Below are positions 7,878 to 14,238 of a stretch of 17,655 nucleotides of DNA, one piece after another. The DNA lies in the IMG/VR virus record IMGVR_UViG_3300014204_013127; one strand, written 5' to 3'. The position numbers and the translations under genes were made by a program. The stretch is from a virus (Duplodnaviria; Heunggongvirae; Uroviricota; Caudoviricetes). The notes under the pieces were generated by a model that worked only from the letters and a program-made list of their open reading frames with translations, did not search any database and had not been told where the DNA came from. Every line of letters begins with the position of its first letter. The first letter of the stretch is position 1.

Positions 7878-8204
7878 ATGGATTGGTTAAAACACGTTGA
7901 TGACCTGAAGGCTGGAAAAAGAGTCCAGATTCGACCCAAAGGTAATTCAATGGAGCCAAAGATCAGCAGCGGTGATTTGGTGACTATCGAGCCAATCAAA
8001 GAAAAAGACCACCGTATTGCAATTGTTGAAAAAGGTGATATAGTATTCTGCAAGGTGAAGGGGCATTATTATATTCACTTGGTAGAAGCTGTTAAACAAA
8101 AAATGGGTTGTGTGCTTTATCAAATCGGCAATAACAAAAAACACACCAATGGCACCATTGGTGCCGATAACATTTTTGGGAAGATAACAAAGGTGGAAAA
8201 ATGA
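7878..8204 (+). CDS. S24/S26 peptidase-like domain protein
   Basis: GNSMEPKISSGDLVTIEP and GDIVFCKV match the SM-P...GD pattern. Start could be 7878 (ATG) or 7836 (GTG). Confidence 0.7.
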   Translation: MDWLKHVDDLKAGKRVQIRPKGNSMEPKISSGDLVTIEPIKEKDHRIAIVEKGDIVFCKVKGHYYIHLVEAVKQKMGCVLYQIGNNKKHTNGTIGADNIFGKITKVEK

Positions 8205-8503
8205 ATATTGAAACCAGAAAAGAGCCCAAAGAGCCAGAGAATGCCGCTGAGGTTATGGCAAGGGCAGTCGAGTTTGCCAAAAAACGTACCGAATGTTTGG
8301 TGCTGGGCGGCAGCGAAGAAGCTGCATTGGAGGCACAACTTGCGTTGGTATGGGATGAATTTAAAGACACATCCTTGTCCAAAAATATTGGTCTTTTTTT
8401 TCCTGAGCCAATCAAGGATGATGCGACCGATCAACTCAGGCTCTGTCTGTATAAGGCTTATTTGTTGGGGCAACTTTCTGTTATCAAACTCCAAAGGTCA
8501 TGA
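8201..8503 (+). CDS. hypothetical protein
   Basis: 100-aa ORF coupled at both ends. Confidence 0.65.
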   Translation: MNIETRKEPKEPENAAEVMARAVEFAKKRTECLVLGGSEEAALEAQLALVWDEFKDTSLSKNIGLFFPEPIKDDATDQLRLCLYKAYLLGQLSVIKLQRS

Positions 8504-8793
8504 TGAACGATACAGAAAAAACACAGTGCGAACAGTTGAGGGCAATTATTGACTGGCTTTATATGCAGTCAGCCGATTTGTTTCTCTGCGGAGAAATTAT
8601 AGAGATTCACGAAGCCCGTGAGTTTCTTAGGGCAATAAAAAATGACCCCCAACATGGCTACGGAAACGATACCCTTGCTCAACATTTTTCCATGATTTGT
8701 CTCAATATCAAGCCTGCCATCGAAATTAGAATAGACAGGATGAACAATGCTCTTGAGAAAATCGAAGAAGCCCAGAAAAAGCCGGGAACATAG
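8500..8793 (+). CDS. hypothetical protein
   Basis: 97-aa ORF, ATGA overlap. Confidence 0.65.
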   Translation: MMNDTEKTQCEQLRAIIDWLYMQSADLFLCGEIIEIHEAREFLRAIKNDPQHGYGNDTLAQHFSMICLNIKPAIEIRIDRMNNALEKIEEAQKKPGT

Positions 8794-8829
8794 TTTTCCT
8801 GTACATTGGGAAGATGAAAGGACAAAATC

Positions 8830-11028
8830 ATGAATTACCCGAAATTGAATGCCAGTCAGTGCGATGAGTTGGAAGCCATTATTGCTGAGTTGGATACTCG
8901 ATTTGATGACGGCGAAGATTGCCTAATCCCCGCCGATACATCGGATGATATGTTGAAACTCTTGGGGTTGGATGCTGCAACCCCCGTATCCGACCCAAAA
9001 TACGATATGCTCAAGGGCACCCTCCAGGCTAATCGTTCTGACTCCAAAATCTTCAAAACTGTTACGGCTTCAAAGCGGGTAATTTCCACAAAGAAGGTAA
9101 AACACGTCCCATTGCTGACCTCCATCGACAAAGCAAGCCATGAGGATTTGGAAATCCAAAAAGCACAACTTTGGAAGTGGATTTCAGATTGCACAGAGAA
9201 AGCCCCCAAGTCGGTTCGGGAAGGCAAGTTTTATGTTCTGGATGGAGAGAAATACAAGGGCAGCAACGTAACTTATCCCCGTGGCTATTTTTATCAGCAA
9301 TGGAAATTGGATGGAGTTTCTATTCAATTCTATTATGAGAAGGGGGAATTGGTTTCGGCTGGTTTGCGTCCACGGGATGGAGAATATGGGGAAGATGTCA
9401 CAGAGCAAGCCAAATATGTGAAGGGCATTCCCACAAAGCTCAAAGTTCCGATCACATGTGCCATTCGGGGTGAATTGATTGTTTTGACTTCCGATTTCCC
9501 CAAGGTTCAAGATTGGAAGCGACAACAGGGGGAAAAAGAATTTTCTAACCAACGATCAGCGGCAGTCGGTGGTATCCGACAATTCAATGATCCCGAGAAA
9601 ACCAAATATCATTTGGTAACTTGCATTGCTCATGGGATTACGTGGAATGATAGTTCCCCTATTCCTTACAGTACCGAAACCGAAAAGGCTATTTGGGTCA
9701 ATAAAAATCTGGGCTACGATTCAGCACATCCGAATGAGCCATGCATTCGATTTGTGCAAAGCAGAAGCTTTAATTTCTTTGATTTGGCAAAGATGGAGGC
9801 AGAAGTCCCCTCTCTGGATTATCGGGTTGACGGGATTGTGATTGGTGTAGAAAGCTTGGATGAACAGAGTCACTTGGGCACCCACGGTGATAAACCCGAT
9901 GGTAATCCACGGGGCAAGATTGCTTGGAAATTCGCTGAGGAACGTGAGCCTGCAATCATTAAAGCCATTGAGTGGAATGTGGGTCGCACTGGGGTCATTA
10001 AACCCGTTGCTATTTTTGCTCCCATTCGCTTGGCCGACACGAATGTAGCCCGTGCCACGCTCCATAATCTCGGATTTATGATTCGTAAGAAAATTGGCCT
10101 GGGCACAGAAATACTTGTCCAAAAAGCCGGGAACATTATCCCCAAGGTGGTGGGTGTCAAATCTAATTCGTGTGACCCAACCTATCCCAAAACTTGCCCA
10201 TCGTGTGGCAAGCCTACGGCCAGTATTCACACCCCCGCCAAAGGTAATAGGGAGGAAATGTGGGAACTTCGATGTGAGAATTCCGACTGTCCAGCGAAGC
10301 AATTGAGCAATTATTGTCATTGGTTTAAGGTCTTGGGTTGCCTGGGATTGGGAGAGGCAACTGTTGAAATGCTCATGTCCAGTGGTAAAATTACCACCAG
10401 AGCCGATTTTTATTCTCTTTCCGCCGCAGATTGCATGGCGGCAGGGCTTTCGGAGCGAGAATCACTGTTGACCGTGGCTGCCATTCATATGATTCACGAT
10501 CCCGAACATATTGATGATAAAGAGCTTGCGACACAAATAACAGCAGCAATTAAAACCCCCAAGAAGGTGGATGCCTGGAAGTTCTTTGCTGCCCTGGGTA
10601 TTCCCACAGCAGGGGAGGATTCGGGAAAATCTTTAATTTCTCACTTTCGGGGTATTGACAAGATACAGGCAGCTAGCGTTAATGAACTTGAGGGCACGGA
10701 TGGGGTTGGTAAAAAGACAGCCGAAATCATTTATTCTTACCTGCAATTGCATTCGCAAGAAATCAACCGGCTGCTGCAACATTTTGACTTGCAACTTCCC
10801 AAAATCGGAAAACTAACAGGCGTGACCTTCTGCCTCAGTGGTAGTTTGCCGCAAGGTAAAACATTCTGGAAAGCAAAGATCGAAGAATTGGGTGGCAAGT
10901 GTGCTGGAAGTGTATCCAAAAAAGTAAAATATCTGGTGGCTGGAGATGGTAGTGGTGATAAGTCGGCTGAGGCAACGGCGTTAGGAATTCCCATCATTGA
11001 TGTTGACACCTTGAAGAATTTGTTGTAA
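8830..11028 (+). CDS. ligA: NAD-dependent DNA ligase
   Basis: Adenylation motif KLDG, RGE, DGIV, AWKF, OB-fold VGRTG, Zn finger CPSC...CENSDC, HhH repeats and a C-terminal BRCT domain (TFCLSGSL...SVSKKVKYLVAG). Confidence 0.97.
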   Translation: MNYPKLNASQCDELEAIIAELDTRFDDGEDCLIPADTSDDMLKLLGLDAATPVSDPKYDMLKGTLQANRSDSKIFKTVTASKRVISTKKVKHVPLLTSIDKASHEDLEIQKAQLWKWISDCTEKAPKSVREGKFYVLDGEKYKGSNVTYPRGYFYQQWKLDGVSIQFYYEKGELVSAGLRPRDGEYGEDVTEQAKYVKGIPTKLKVPITCAIRGELIVLTSDFPKVQDWKRQQGEKEFSNQRSAAVGGIRQFNDPEKTKYHLVTCIAHGITWNDSSPIPYSTETEKAIWVNKNLGYDSAHPNEPCIRFVQSRSFNFFDLAKMEAEVPSLDYRVDGIVIGVESLDEQSHLGTHGDKPDGNPRGKIAWKFAEEREPAIIKAIEWNVGRTGVIKPVAIFAPIRLADTNVARATLHNLGFMIRKKIGLGTEILVQKAGNIIPKVVGVKSNSCDPTYPKTCPSCGKPTASIHTPAKGNREEMWELRCENSDCPAKQLSNYCHWFKVLGCLGLGEATVEMLMSSGKITTRADFYSLSAADCMAAGLSERESLLTVAAIHMIHDPEHIDDKELATQITAAIKTPKKVDAWKFFAALGIPTAGEDSGKSLISHFRGIDKIQAASVNELEGTDGVGKKTAEIIYSYLQLHSQEINRLLQHFDLQLPKIGKLTGVTFCLSGSLPQGKTFWKAKIEELGGKCAGSVSKKVKYLVAGDGSGDKSAEATALGIPIIDVDTLKNLL

Positions 11029-11764: not shown

Positions 11765-12445
11765 ATGAGAATTGGTTTAGAAAAAGAATTTTTTCTTTTA
11801 ACAAAAGACGGCGAGCCTGTTTCTCTGGCTGCTGTAAATCCGACCGGGACTGGCGGGCATTCCTTACTTCGTTTACCACACGATGATTGCGGCTGGTTGG
11901 TTGAAGCAAGGGGCGAACCTTTTAGCAACCCTGTTGATGCCGTGTTTAGCTTAAAGGCAGAAATTTACAAGATTGAGCAGACGCTGGCAGAAATTAACGC
12001 CGAAACCTTCTTTGCTGGATTACCATTCAGATTGTCAGATGTGCCAATCATGAAGGTTCCTAAGACCGTAAGGTTGCAATCCGCAAGATATTTCACTAAG
12101 CCGTTGGTGAAGTATCAAAACTTTTATGGATACGAAACACACAAAAATGCAATGCTGGAAGGCACAGCGGGCGTACATGTCAGCTTCACCCAAGAGACCA
12201 GTTTTACAGAAGATGCTTGTGAGTCATGCGGACATTGCAAAGAACGTATCTACAACGTCAATTTTGATTGGCCACAAATTTTCTTGAAGTTGGATGCTGC
12301 ATTTGCCGAAGAAATCAAAGAAGCTAAGCGACGACCGGGTTTCTACGAGATCAAGCACGATGGGCGGGTGGAATATCGTTCGTTGCCCGCAGATGTGGAT
12401 ATGGAAAAGCTGATTAAAATTCTGAAAACGGTGGTTTACACTTGA
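11765..12445 (+). CDS. phiEco32-like COOH-NH2 ligase type 2 (glutamate-cysteine ligase-like fold)
   Basis: N-terminal IGLEKEFFL, DDCGWLVEARG, AGVHVSF and RRPGFYEIKHDGRVEYRSL; SD GGAGG upstream. Confidence 0.75.
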   Translation: MRIGLEKEFFLLTKDGEPVSLAAVNPTGTGGHSLLRLPHDDCGWLVEARGEPFSNPVDAVFSLKAEIYKIEQTLAEINAETFFAGLPFRLSDVPIMKVPKTVRLQSARYFTKPLVKYQNFYGYETHKNAMLEGTAGVHVSFTQETSFTEDACESCGHCKERIYNVNFDWPQIFLKLDAAFAEEIKEAKRRPGFYEIKHDGRVEYRSLPADVDMEKLIKILKTVVYT

Positions 12446-12463
12446 TTGATTCTGAAGTATAAT
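12435..12463 (+). promoter_or_regulatory. sigma70-type promoter, leaderless start
   Basis: TTTACA (12435-12440), 17 nt, TATAAT (12458-12463); ATG 6 nt later at 12470. Confidence 0.7.
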
Positions 12464-12469
12464 GGGAAC

Positions 12470-13024
12470 ATGAAACGAACATTATTGATTTTGCTGGCAA
12501 TGTCGATCTGCAATTGTGCGTCTGCTGATATCATTCCTGCTGTCGTTGATTATCAATATCATGGCGAATTGAATGGATCGATGTGGACGTGGACAAAAAT
12601 TACTGATCCTGGTTATGGAATGCCCGAGTGGTTTACAATTCCTTCCAACCAAGATAAGTGGCTTTTTATTCCGAATAACGAACAGTTGGACAGAGTAAAG
12701 CATTTGTGGTTGCAAGTAGAGTGGCAGAGTGATTCCAATGTAGTCGATCCTATTGTGTGGGTGCCTCAAGGATTTACTGTTACGGGTAGTGATTCTGTTC
12801 ATTTTGCTAATACTTATGTCTGGGAGTGGATTATCACACCCCAGTCGGGTGCAGAGATTATTCAATTCCCCAACTCGTTTTCGTGGGCTGGTGTCACTGG
12901 AATTGATGTTGCCACGGATTGTCCCGAACCATCTACTATCGTTCTGCTTGGCATTGGTGCAATTTTCCTAATTTGCAGAAACAAATCATGTGTGAACCGG
13001 CTCCTTCCTGTGGGAGCCGCATAG
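12470..13024 (+). CDS. PEP-CTERM protein-sorting domain surface protein
   Basis: Signal peptide MKRTLLILLAMSICNCASA; C-terminal CPEPSTIVLLGIGAIFLICRNK is PEP motif + TM helix + basic residues. Confidence 0.85.
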   Translation: MKRTLLILLAMSICNCASADIIPAVVDYQYHGELNGSMWTWTKITDPGYGMPEWFTIPSNQDKWLFIPNNEQLDRVKHLWLQVEWQSDSNVVDPIVWVPQGFTVTGSDSVHFANTYVWEWIITPQSGAEIIQFPNSFSWAGVTGIDVATDCPEPSTIVLLGIGAIFLICRNKSCVNRLLPVGAA

Positions 13025-13363
13025 GAGGTTTCCCTTTCTCCTTAAAAGGGGGTTACTGCTATCCCTTAAAGCGGGGTTAGTCTTTTTAACTTAAAAGGCG
13101 GTCTTCCCTCGACTATAAAGTGGGGGTTTTCATCTGGTTTTCTCCACATAAACCCGAGGCTTTTATCTGATTGCCTATAAATCAGAGGTTTCAGCAGGTG
13201 TCACCACAACACCTGGGCATTACTGGTTTCGCCTACCTAGCCAGAGGTTTTGTCAGGTGTCTCCACAACATCTGGGATTTGTCAGTTGTTCCTCAACACA
13301 CTGGGACGCATCTGGTCGTCCTAACCACCAGAGGTTTTTGCCGGATTATCCATAAAATCCGGC
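13023..13363 (+). ncRNA. array of 12 tandem H-type pseudoknot units (25-33 nt period), function unknown
   Basis: Each unit is GGN, a U-rich linker, a 5-8 bp stem arm, NCC, an A-rich linker and the complementary arm, with compensatory changes among units. See findings. Confidence 0.75.
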
Positions 13364-13373
13364 ATTTTTTTTT
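13340..13373 (+). terminator. intrinsic terminator (also the last unit of the array)
   Basis: GCCGGATT/AATCCGGC 8-bp stem, then A and T9 (13365-13373). Confidence 0.85.
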
Positions 13374-13375
13374 GG

Positions 13376-13403
13376 TTTACAAGGCAAGTTTCTGGAGTAT
13401 AAT
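13376..13403 (+). promoter_or_regulatory. sigma70-type promoter
   Basis: TTTACA (13376-13381), 16 nt, TATAAT (13398-13403); shares TTCTGRAGTATAAT with the promoters at 4069 and 12435. Confidence 0.75.
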
Positions 13404-13500: not shown

Positions 13501-14238
13501 ATGAATAAGACAATTATTTTGACATTGCTGTGCTTTTGTGGTTGTGCCCCAGACTTGCACAAGGGGGTCTATGTCAGCGACAAGCATACCATCGAAGTTG
13601 CCAGCGATGCCACTTTGCAGGTTGATGGAAAGGATTGCATTCATTATACCACGCATCCAGAACAGACTTTGAAAGCTACTGTGGATGGAGTAGAAGTCGT
13701 CTATTATGTGGAAGTGCCGAGTTCCACTAAATTTGTTTTAACAGCCAAAACAAATATCGGCCACAATGATCTTTCGGGGGTTTATATCAAGGACGATAAC
13801 AGCACAAAGCCGGTGCCAATAGATGAATTAAAACAATTAAAAATCAAAAGAAAAGTGTGTGCGGGGAAACTGGAGAAATTGGATACGGTGTTGTTGACGA
13901 TGAGTACCCAAATTGCAACTAAAACACAAAAACTAAAAAGTTTGGGCATTAAATCCTCCGCAGATATAAAAGACACCGAAACCAGACAGCTTGCTCAAGA
14001 TTTGGTCGCTATGACAAAGGATCGGGACAATCTTGACAAAGCAAAAAAAATTATTTCCACGAAGCTTGATGAAATAGACCGTGGGATAGAGCAGTTGGAA
14101 ACCAATACATCGGAGATTTCCGACAAAGAATTGGAAGAATTATTAGCGAGTATCGCTGATAAAAGGGGTGGGCAACCTAAGACGCCGGTTGAGAGCATTG
14201 AATCAAATGACATTTTGACAAAAGCCCTGGGGAAATAA
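13501..14238 (+). CDS. putative lipoprotein with C-terminal coiled coil
   Basis: MNKTIILTLLCFCGC is a signal peptide II with a lipobox-like xxGC; SD AAGGAG; helical K/E-rich C-terminal half. Confidence 0.75.
   Translation: MNKTIILTLLCFCGCAPDLHKGVYVSDKHTIEVASDATLQVDGKDCIHYTTHPEQTLKATVDGVEVVYYVEVPSSTKFVLTAKTNIGHNDLSGVYIKDDNSTKPVPIDELKQLKIKRKVCAGKLEKLDTVLLTMSTQIATKTQKLKSLGIKSSADIKDTETRQLAQDLVAMTKDRDNLDKAKKIISTKLDEIDRGIEQLETNTSEISDKELEELLASIADKRGGQPKTPVESIESNDILTKALGK

Follow-up and report, generated by a model that had tools for sequence, protein, structure and literature searches.

A 17,655-nt stretch of virus DNA (IMG/VR record IMGVR_UViG_3300014204_013127, Caudoviricetes; hereafter the window, to whose positions coordinates refer unless stated otherwise) raises the question of what a long run of back-to-back hairpins at the end of a gene for a PEP-CTERM protein is for. 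The original prediction, made from the sequence alone, described this array as twelve H-type pseudoknots in an undescribed phage RNA. We suggest that the array encodes a structured, multivalent phage non-coding RNA (ncRNA), read from the + strand, ~370 nt long and composed of 13 diverged tandem modules, a reading to which we assign a probability of roughly 0.45. Alternatives were ranked, from most to least favoured, as a sponge of plain hairpins, a barrier at a 3' end, a precursor of small RNAs, an antitoxin decoy and a DNA element, and each is taken up below with the evidence that bears on it. The window lies within a huge-phage contig of 340,072 bp (reverse strand of G001:C200), which was binned together with a 6.2-Mb genome.

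Thirteen abutting hairpin modules

Reading positions 13000-13400 and listing the local helices confirmed twelve abutting hairpins where they had been predicted. The end of the array at a run of nine T residues (T9) was also correct, but the array does not begin at the stop codon of the PEP-CTERM open reading frame (ORF) as proposed: it starts earlier, with a thirteenth hairpin inside the ORF. The 13 modules abut one another over 12998-13364 with a period of 24-33 nt, and the last of them is the T9 terminator. Measured from unit 0 through the terminator, the RNA is ~370 nt long, in sequence-diverged modules of ~28 nt. The features of the array and of its 5' flank are as follows.

12437..12463, + strand: sigma-70-like promoter (TTTACA, 16-17 nt, TATAAT), the only promoter upstream of the array
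12470..13024, + strand: PEP-CTERM protein gene (Pfam PF07589); the 5' part of the array supplies its last ~12-15 codons
12998..13019, + strand: unit 0, a 7-bp hairpin (12998-13004 / 13013-13019, loop UUCCUGUG) within the last 9 codons of the PEP-CTERM ORF
13023..13157, + strand: units 1-5, whose homologues in the related phage contig L024 carry compensatory changes
13032-37/13045-50, + strand: long stem of unit 1
13056-60/13070-74, + strand: long stem of unit 2
13080-86/13093-99, + strand: long stem of unit 3
13106-10/13122-26, + strand: long stem of unit 4, CCCTC with GGGGG, one G.U pair
13133-40/13150-57, + strand: long stem of unit 5, one internal U.C mismatch
13158..13332, + strand: units 6-11, regular modules of 28-31 nt
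13333..13373, + strand: unit 12 and intrinsic terminator, a 9-bp stem (13339-47/13356-64) with loop AUCCAUAA, then T9 (13365-13373)

Each module has a long stem of 5-9 bp. Within an array the stem sequences are almost unshared, yet all of them pair. Nine of the twelve long stems originally listed were found as written, four of them with one G.U pair, and those of units 4, 5 and 10 needed correction. In unit 4, CCCTC had been paired with GTGGG, which would give a U.U mismatch; its partner is GGGGG at 13122-13126. The long stem of unit 10 has a 1-nt bulge at C13299. Conserved letters were found only in the single-stranded parts, as GG and U-rich sequence in the linker 5' of the stem and as CC and A-rich sequence in the loop. 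All linkers start with GG, and CC is present in 21 of 25 loops (the unit 0 of each array is not counted). In units 6-11 each module opens with (A)GG and a U-rich linker; a stem of 6-8 bp comes next, with a loop in which CC precedes A-rich bases, and the return strand ends the module. Modules are separated by 0-1 nt, with CAG/AGG or CUG/GG as the recurrent junction. The 12 units have a mean column identity of 51% in a MAFFT alignment, which did not bring them into structural register, and Tandem Repeats Finder called a repeat only for units 9-10 (2 copies, 83%).

The array is unique in the contig and is read as a + strand RNA

The window and the 340,072-bp contig were scanned on both strands with a descriptor for chains of modules (GG, 1-8 nt, hairpin of at least 5 bp, 0-1 nt, GG). 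This returned a chain of 13 modules at the array and at best 4 modules elsewhere. The longest chains in three block-shuffled contigs had 3-5 modules. The array is therefore unique in the phage contig and far beyond chance. The z-score of the minimum free energy of the array region was -3.3.

A census of stem pairs in 27 units counted 141 Watson-Crick pairs, 9 G.U pairs, no A.C pair and 1 other. The presence of G.U without A.C, together with the orientation of the promoter and terminator, indicates that the + strand is the functional RNA strand, in agreement with what had been concluded from the wobble pairs of the window. Folding energy did not discriminate between the strands. On the minus strand of 13023-13364, GGA is found in 7-8 of the 12 loops (for example AUGGAU and UAGGAC), resembling CsrA-binding loops; this strand is opposed by the G.U pairs, the promoter and the terminator.

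Long stems are preserved by compensatory changes in a related phage

L024 encodes a neighbour protein 67% identical to that of the window and carries two arrays, A and B. The 8 units of array A lie behind a small ORF. No ORF precedes array B, which starts ~15 nt past a promoter and extends to the contig end. Array B and the window array align unit for unit and in the same order (units 0, 2, 3, 4, 5 and 6), with unit 1 missing. L024 does not have the PEP-CTERM gene, and the homology begins ~20 nt before unit 0, within the C-terminal tail of the window ORF. Six compensatory double changes preserve the long stems between the window and L024, as listed here from window to L024.

Unit 0 long stem: two G:C to A:U, 7 bp kept
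Unit 3 long stem: G:C to C:G
Unit 5 long stem: U:A to C:G
Unit 6 long stem: A:U to G:C and U:A to C:G

The exceptions in L024 are one unit 5 pair that is lost and the unit 4 stem, which has decayed. A conserved fold under divergent sequence, as first described among the units of the window, thus holds both among units and between two phages. Coding potential of the array was rejected on the basis of indels of 1, 2, 7 and 26 nt between the two phages.

These changes also bear on whether the array acts as DNA, for instance as an origin, a packaging site or a recombination site, or is a neutral, decaying minisatellite. Visible kinship among units 7, 9 and 10 of the window and units A1 and A3 of L024 identifies a tandem repeat by descent, which would suit such an element. 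Against this, compensatory change keeps the stems while sequence is lost, G.U pairs are present and A.C pairs absent, a promoter and a terminator bracket the array on one strand, and there is a single copy in 340 kb. We regard a DNA-level role or neutral decay as very improbable.

Between the 212-aa gene and array A, positions 1971-2126 of L024 hold an open frame of 51 codons, preceded by a Shine-Dalgarno sequence, GGGAGG. ATG, GTG and TTG starts are absent from this frame (ATT or ATA would be possible), and it has no PHROG match.

Loops are complementary to their own linkers in two of the three arrays

The original prediction held that each loop is complementary to the segment 5' of its stem and covaries with it, which would give a second, short stem (S1) and an H-type pseudoknot. 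In the window array, loops paired better with their own 5' linker than with the linkers of other units (permutation p=0.0003-0.002 by duplex energy and 0.01-0.08 by helix length) and better than shuffled loops (z=4.1-4.9; 0 of 400 shuffles reached the observed value). Pairing of window loops with the downstream linker was not above that with non-cognate linkers. In L024 array B, linker-loop pairing exceeded that of shuffled loops with z=2.7-3.3. Two double changes preserve S1 between the phages, in unit 2 (G13050:C13063 to A:U) and in unit 6 (C13160:G13173 to U:A), and the S1 of unit 5 shows two loop C/U swaps opposite G. Four loops without CC (units 3 and 4 of the window and units 3 and 5 of L024 array B) have longer, unit-specific S1 stems of 4-7 bp. 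The S1 stems of units 6-11 are GGC/GCC, GGU/ACC, GGC/GCC, GG/CC, GGA/UCC and GGACG/CGUCC.

The U-rich L1, the A-rich L3 and the junctions of 0-1 nt were as originally described; L1 measures 2-6 nt, L2 mostly 0-2 nt and L3 2-7 nt. This geometry is compatible with classical H-type knots that could stack across units. Pseudoknots are hence a reasonable reading of the window array, and we consider it an even chance that in most of its modules the loop CC pairs with the GG of the module's own linker to form an H-type pseudoknot whose L1 is U-rich and whose L3 is A-rich.

Several observations weigh against this reading or against the wider proposal of a structured, multivalent RNA. Linker-loop complementarity in L024 array A does not go beyond composition (z ~0), so the pseudoknot stem is not universal among arrays. 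The GG and CC are nevertheless conserved in array A, and could be protein contacts instead. Under the strict rule that no bases are shared with the previous stem, S1 has only 2 bp in units 2, 9, 10 and 12, and unit 5 has an S1 only if the G run that closes unit 4 is used for it as well. The S1 stems of units 1-5 are long (4-7 bp) and overlap the preceding long stem by 1-6 nt; since these bases are shared, not all pairs can coexist. The original prediction had noted linkers too short for all pairs in units 1-3, and base sharing was seen in units 1-5. The covariation between phages is a two-sequence comparison, of the window with L024 alone. Finally, no partner protein was found among the neighbouring proteins, which have no Pfam or PHROG match. 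The claim of loops that pair with their own linkers was thus supported in part: cognate specificity, shuffles and two double changes speak for it, and the 2-bp stems, the overlaps in units 1-5 and array A speak against it.

The same observations bear on the possibility that the modules are plain hairpins without knots, in which an RNA-binding protein reads the GG(U) linkers and the (U)CC-ACA loops, as in a CsrB- or RsmZ-like sponge with another motif. This would fit array A, which keeps GG and CC without complementarity beyond composition, the strict S1 stems of just 2 bp in several window units, and the finding that RNAfold accounts for the region by hairpins alone. It is harder to reconcile with the cognate-specific complementarity of linkers and loops in the window array and array B, with the two compensatory S1 changes, and with the longer specific complements of CC-less loops. 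We consider plain hairpins the strongest of the alternatives, although still unlikely.

The array is an RNA gene into which a PEP-CTERM gene appears to have been slotted

Since array B of L024 is driven by a promoter with no ORF, the array is an RNA gene in its own right, and its earlier framing as the 3' untranslated region of the PEP-CTERM gene was misleading. This result also weakens the suggestion, made in the original prediction, that the stacked stable folds are a 3'-end barrier that stops 3'-to-5' exonucleases and stabilises the upstream PEP-CTERM mRNA. The place of the window array between stop codon and terminator, and that of L024 array A behind a small ORF, are what a barrier would predict. 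Besides the ORF-less array B, however, one terminator hairpin is normally enough for this purpose, the bacterial homologue of the PEP-CTERM gene has a simple terminator only, and 13 modules with conserved loop and linker letters exceed the needs of a barrier. A barrier function is therefore improbable.

The promoter at 12437-12463 and the promoter directly before L024 array B have the core TTCTGAAGTATAAT in common. In the window, the ATG that lies 7 nt past the -10 box of this promoter is the leaderless start of the PEP-CTERM ORF. The tail of the PEP-CTERM protein (…SCVNRLLPVGAA) is encoded by sequence whose homologue in L024, within 2355-2432, is non-coding and forms the 5' region of the array. 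Bacterial and metagenomic PEP-CTERM homologues all end 2-3 residues past the basic cluster. The ORF of the window continues for 12-15 codons inside the RNA gene, and this accounts for the unusual tail that follows its RNK basic cluster. A chromosomal homologue of the PEP-CTERM protein, 55% identical, was found in a Planctomycetaceae metagenome-assembled genome, where only a plain terminator lies downstream of the gene. This homologue points to the host lineage, and the host of the huge phage is probably a member of the Planctomycetes. The PEP-CTERM gene is not the reason for the existence of the array; it looks like host-derived cargo that was slotted into the RNA gene behind its promoter and ahead of its first hairpin, a case of a host surface-protein gene inserted at the 5' end of an RNA gene.

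The gene that precedes the array varies: it is the PEP-CTERM gene in the window and on the contig that carries protein P0003, an unrelated 173-aa ORF on the contig that carries P0007, and in L024 a small ORF together with array A. The slot between the gene of the conserved 226-aa protein and the array looks like a cargo hotspot.

An extended form, TTTACA, ~11 nt, TTCTG(A/G)AGTATAAT, is common to three promoters (12437-12463 and 13376-13403 of the window and 2355-2382 of L024), and in two of the three an ATG follows the -10 box by 7 nt. Promoters of this form may be a phage class with leaderless starts.

The array RNA matches no catalogued RNA family

A search of the whole window against Rfam at the gathering threshold returned tRNAs only. 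When cmscan was run on the array region and L024 with E values up to 10, it gave only sub-threshold matches at chance level (anti-hemB, suhB, Xist and SAM-III), the best of which was anti-hemB with 28 bits against a gathering score of 49.5. The array RNA thus matches no catalogued RNA family, and the claim of an undescribed structured phage RNA, here on a 340-kb huge-phage contig, stands. A covariance model built from the array units, as proposed with the original prediction, with a seed of 3 units, retrieved 14 true units mixed with noise. Over the 6.2-Mb bin its sole match was the array itself. A lone unit holds too little information for database mining. Two further candidates were rejected, namely preQ1-I aptamers (no Rfam match) and mimicry of an anticodon arm or T-arm (the U33 / purine-37 pattern is absent).

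Type III antitoxin RNAs (ToxI, AntiQ, CptI and TenpI) and phage pseudo-ToxI share with the array tandem small units with pseudoknot potential, a promoter, a terminator and possible carriage by a phage. They differ in being near-identical repeats of 34-49 nt, in 2-5.5 copies, directly upstream of an endoribonuclease toxin gene, whereas the array has 13 dissimilar units of 24-33 nt and no toxin gene beside it. The gene downstream is for a lipoprotein and has its own promoter.

13376..13403, + strand: sigma-70-like promoter of the lipoprotein gene, marking the end of the array transcription unit
13501-14238, + strand: lipoprotein gene, 245 aa, downstream of the array

A diversified set of type III antitoxin decoys had been among the original proposals; such an RNA would neutralise abortive-infection toxins of the host related to ToxN, CptN or TenpN. 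Tandem, small, pseudoknot-like units ahead of a terminator in a phage are reminiscent of such decoys, but no Rfam antitoxin RNA matches the array and its units are dissimilar, where ToxI, CptI and TenpI are made of identical repeats. A search for the ToxN family (PF13958) in the bin of the phage contig found no match, a result of little weight because control genomes were silent as well. The proposal is highly improbable, and none of the functional analogies of the original prediction was supported.

A precursor that is cut at the junctions, after CWG and before GG, into ~28-nt protein-binding small RNAs, in the manner of ToxI or crRNA precursors, would account for the regular module size and the recurrent CAG/AGG or CUG/GG junction. 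Pfam and PHROG searches of the neighbours revealed no gene for a processing enzyme beside the array, however, and the differing module sequences are ill-suited to one sequence-specific nuclease. We consider such processing improbable too, and a little more so than a barrier.

Other known RNAs resemble the array in part. The Csr/Rsm sponge RNAs (CsrB and RsmZ/Y/X) have many short hairpins with a repeated short motif and a terminator, and titrate a protein multivalently, which is the working model that we propose for the array. They expose GGA in hairpin loops, whereas the + strand of the array has CC in loops and GG in linkers. The array was rejected as a Csr/Rsm sponge proper, as its GGA-type loops occur only on the minus strand. 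The STAXI RNA motif of Rfam is likewise a small tandem pseudoknot without known function, found in mobile-element contexts; its conserved nucleotides and gene associations differ from those of the array, and cmscan gave no match at E values up to 10. Because the units differ in stem sequence, they cannot all copy one CRISPR repeat, as a Racr or repeat mimic would. Reverse transcriptase (RT)-associated ncRNAs (UG27 and DRT2/3/9) are phage or defence RNAs with several stem-loops that lie beside a protein partner (PMC9226505). The array was rejected as an RNA of this kind: PF00078 (RVT_1) is absent from C200, and the two matches in the bin are on contigs C168 and C204.

A possible shape-reading partner and stacking of the modules

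The repeated fold, the conserved single-stranded letters and the L024 array without an ORF together suggest that the RNA has a function of its own rather than the protection of one mRNA. Reasoning from the anatomy of the array alone, we tentatively propose that the RNA acts as a decoy or scaffold, multivalent and resistant to nucleases, for a host or phage protein that reads shape; this seems to us less likely than not. In such a model a dozen copies of one shape would be displayed to the protein, and divergence between copies would mainly avert recombinational loss and misfolding among neighbours. A compact RNA gene, from promoter to terminator, in which the fold and four to six single-stranded letters are kept across 13 copies while the remainder drifts, bears the signature of a shape-based, multivalent function.

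Abutting knots could stack end to end. In the tobamovirus 3' untranslated region (the upstream pseudoknot domain) and in tmRNA (PK2-PK4), three consecutive H-type pseudoknots form a stacked, quasi-continuous stalk downstream of a stop codon. The array would have 12-13 knots against three in those strings, which belong to eukaryotic viruses or tmRNA and to which it has no sequence or family relation; the comparison is an analogy. A more speculative form of the proposal, which we think doubtful, is that the 12-13 modules make up one coaxial stack of H-type pseudoknots, a nicked rod of >100 bp with which the phage, using no protein, would mimic a nucleic acid or present a multivalent decoy to an RNA-binding defence factor or RNA-decay factor of the host. 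U-rich strands would then line the deep groove and A-rich strands the shallow groove. Such a stack, if true, could help to establish 'poly-pseudoknot' RNAs as a new class. Should the knots both form and stack, the array would hold the longest pseudoknot string known to us in a bacterial or phage RNA, and one tractable for structural work. Huge phages are known for protein-coding novelties and tRNAs; to our knowledge, very few structured ncRNAs have been described from them.

Array relatives appear confined to a narrow clade

Searches for relatives of the locus gave few results. Blastn against INPHARED found no DNA relative, and tblastn with the ligase encoded near the array found only relatives of <32% identity. 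Three single proteins (PEP-CTERM protein, lipoprotein and ligase) and a PEP-CTERM alignment, used as queries against IMG/VR, yielded no relatives, nor did two scans of a metagenome contig collection. A search of 201 relative genomes and of 401 from the phylum recovered the phage contig and one 30-nt terminator match, and nothing else. A pattern for unit 0 had no match in IMG/VR, and a two-junction pattern had 5 chance matches there, all without arrays.

Protein relatives, of the PEP-CTERM protein and of the products of neighbour genes, were found on short metagenomic contigs; those that carry the proteins P0002-P0005, P0007, P0011 and P0128 are known from gene maps. They include contigs of JGI 3300075153 (P0002, P0003/P0008 and P0005), JGI 3300069939 (P0004) and Logan SRR22315509 (P0128), and a 17,667-bp contig of ENA ERZ1426851 with P0007/P0127, in which the gap measures 485 nt. 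L020 and L021 are identical copies and were left out as uninformative. According to the gene maps, 287-486 nt without a called gene lie at the equivalent place in five relatives. Relatives in which the identity of the 226-aa neighbour is <=58% have tRNAs or genes at the place of the array and no arrays. As far as seen, the array family thus appears to be confined to a narrow clade.

Genes and other features around the array

The surroundings of the array comprise genes for a NAD-dependent ligase, a sigma factor, the 226-aa conserved protein, the PEP-CTERM protein and the lipoprotein, as well as eight tRNA genes. The 226-aa protein (11765-12445), upstream of the array, has >120 homologues of 35-86% identity on contigs that reach 340 kb. 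Among its invariant motifs are GLEKEFF, close to the N-terminus, and EYRSLP, close to the C-terminus; Pfam and PHROG assigned the protein to no family. The 245-aa lipoprotein had no match in Pfam or PHROG.

Comparison of G001:C200 with the window showed a 4-bp indel within 8001-9000, and the remaining 1-kb blocks tested were identical. On the reverse complement of G001:C200, four or five strong, GC-rich hairpins are clustered at positions 137380-137590; they differ in kind from those of the array.
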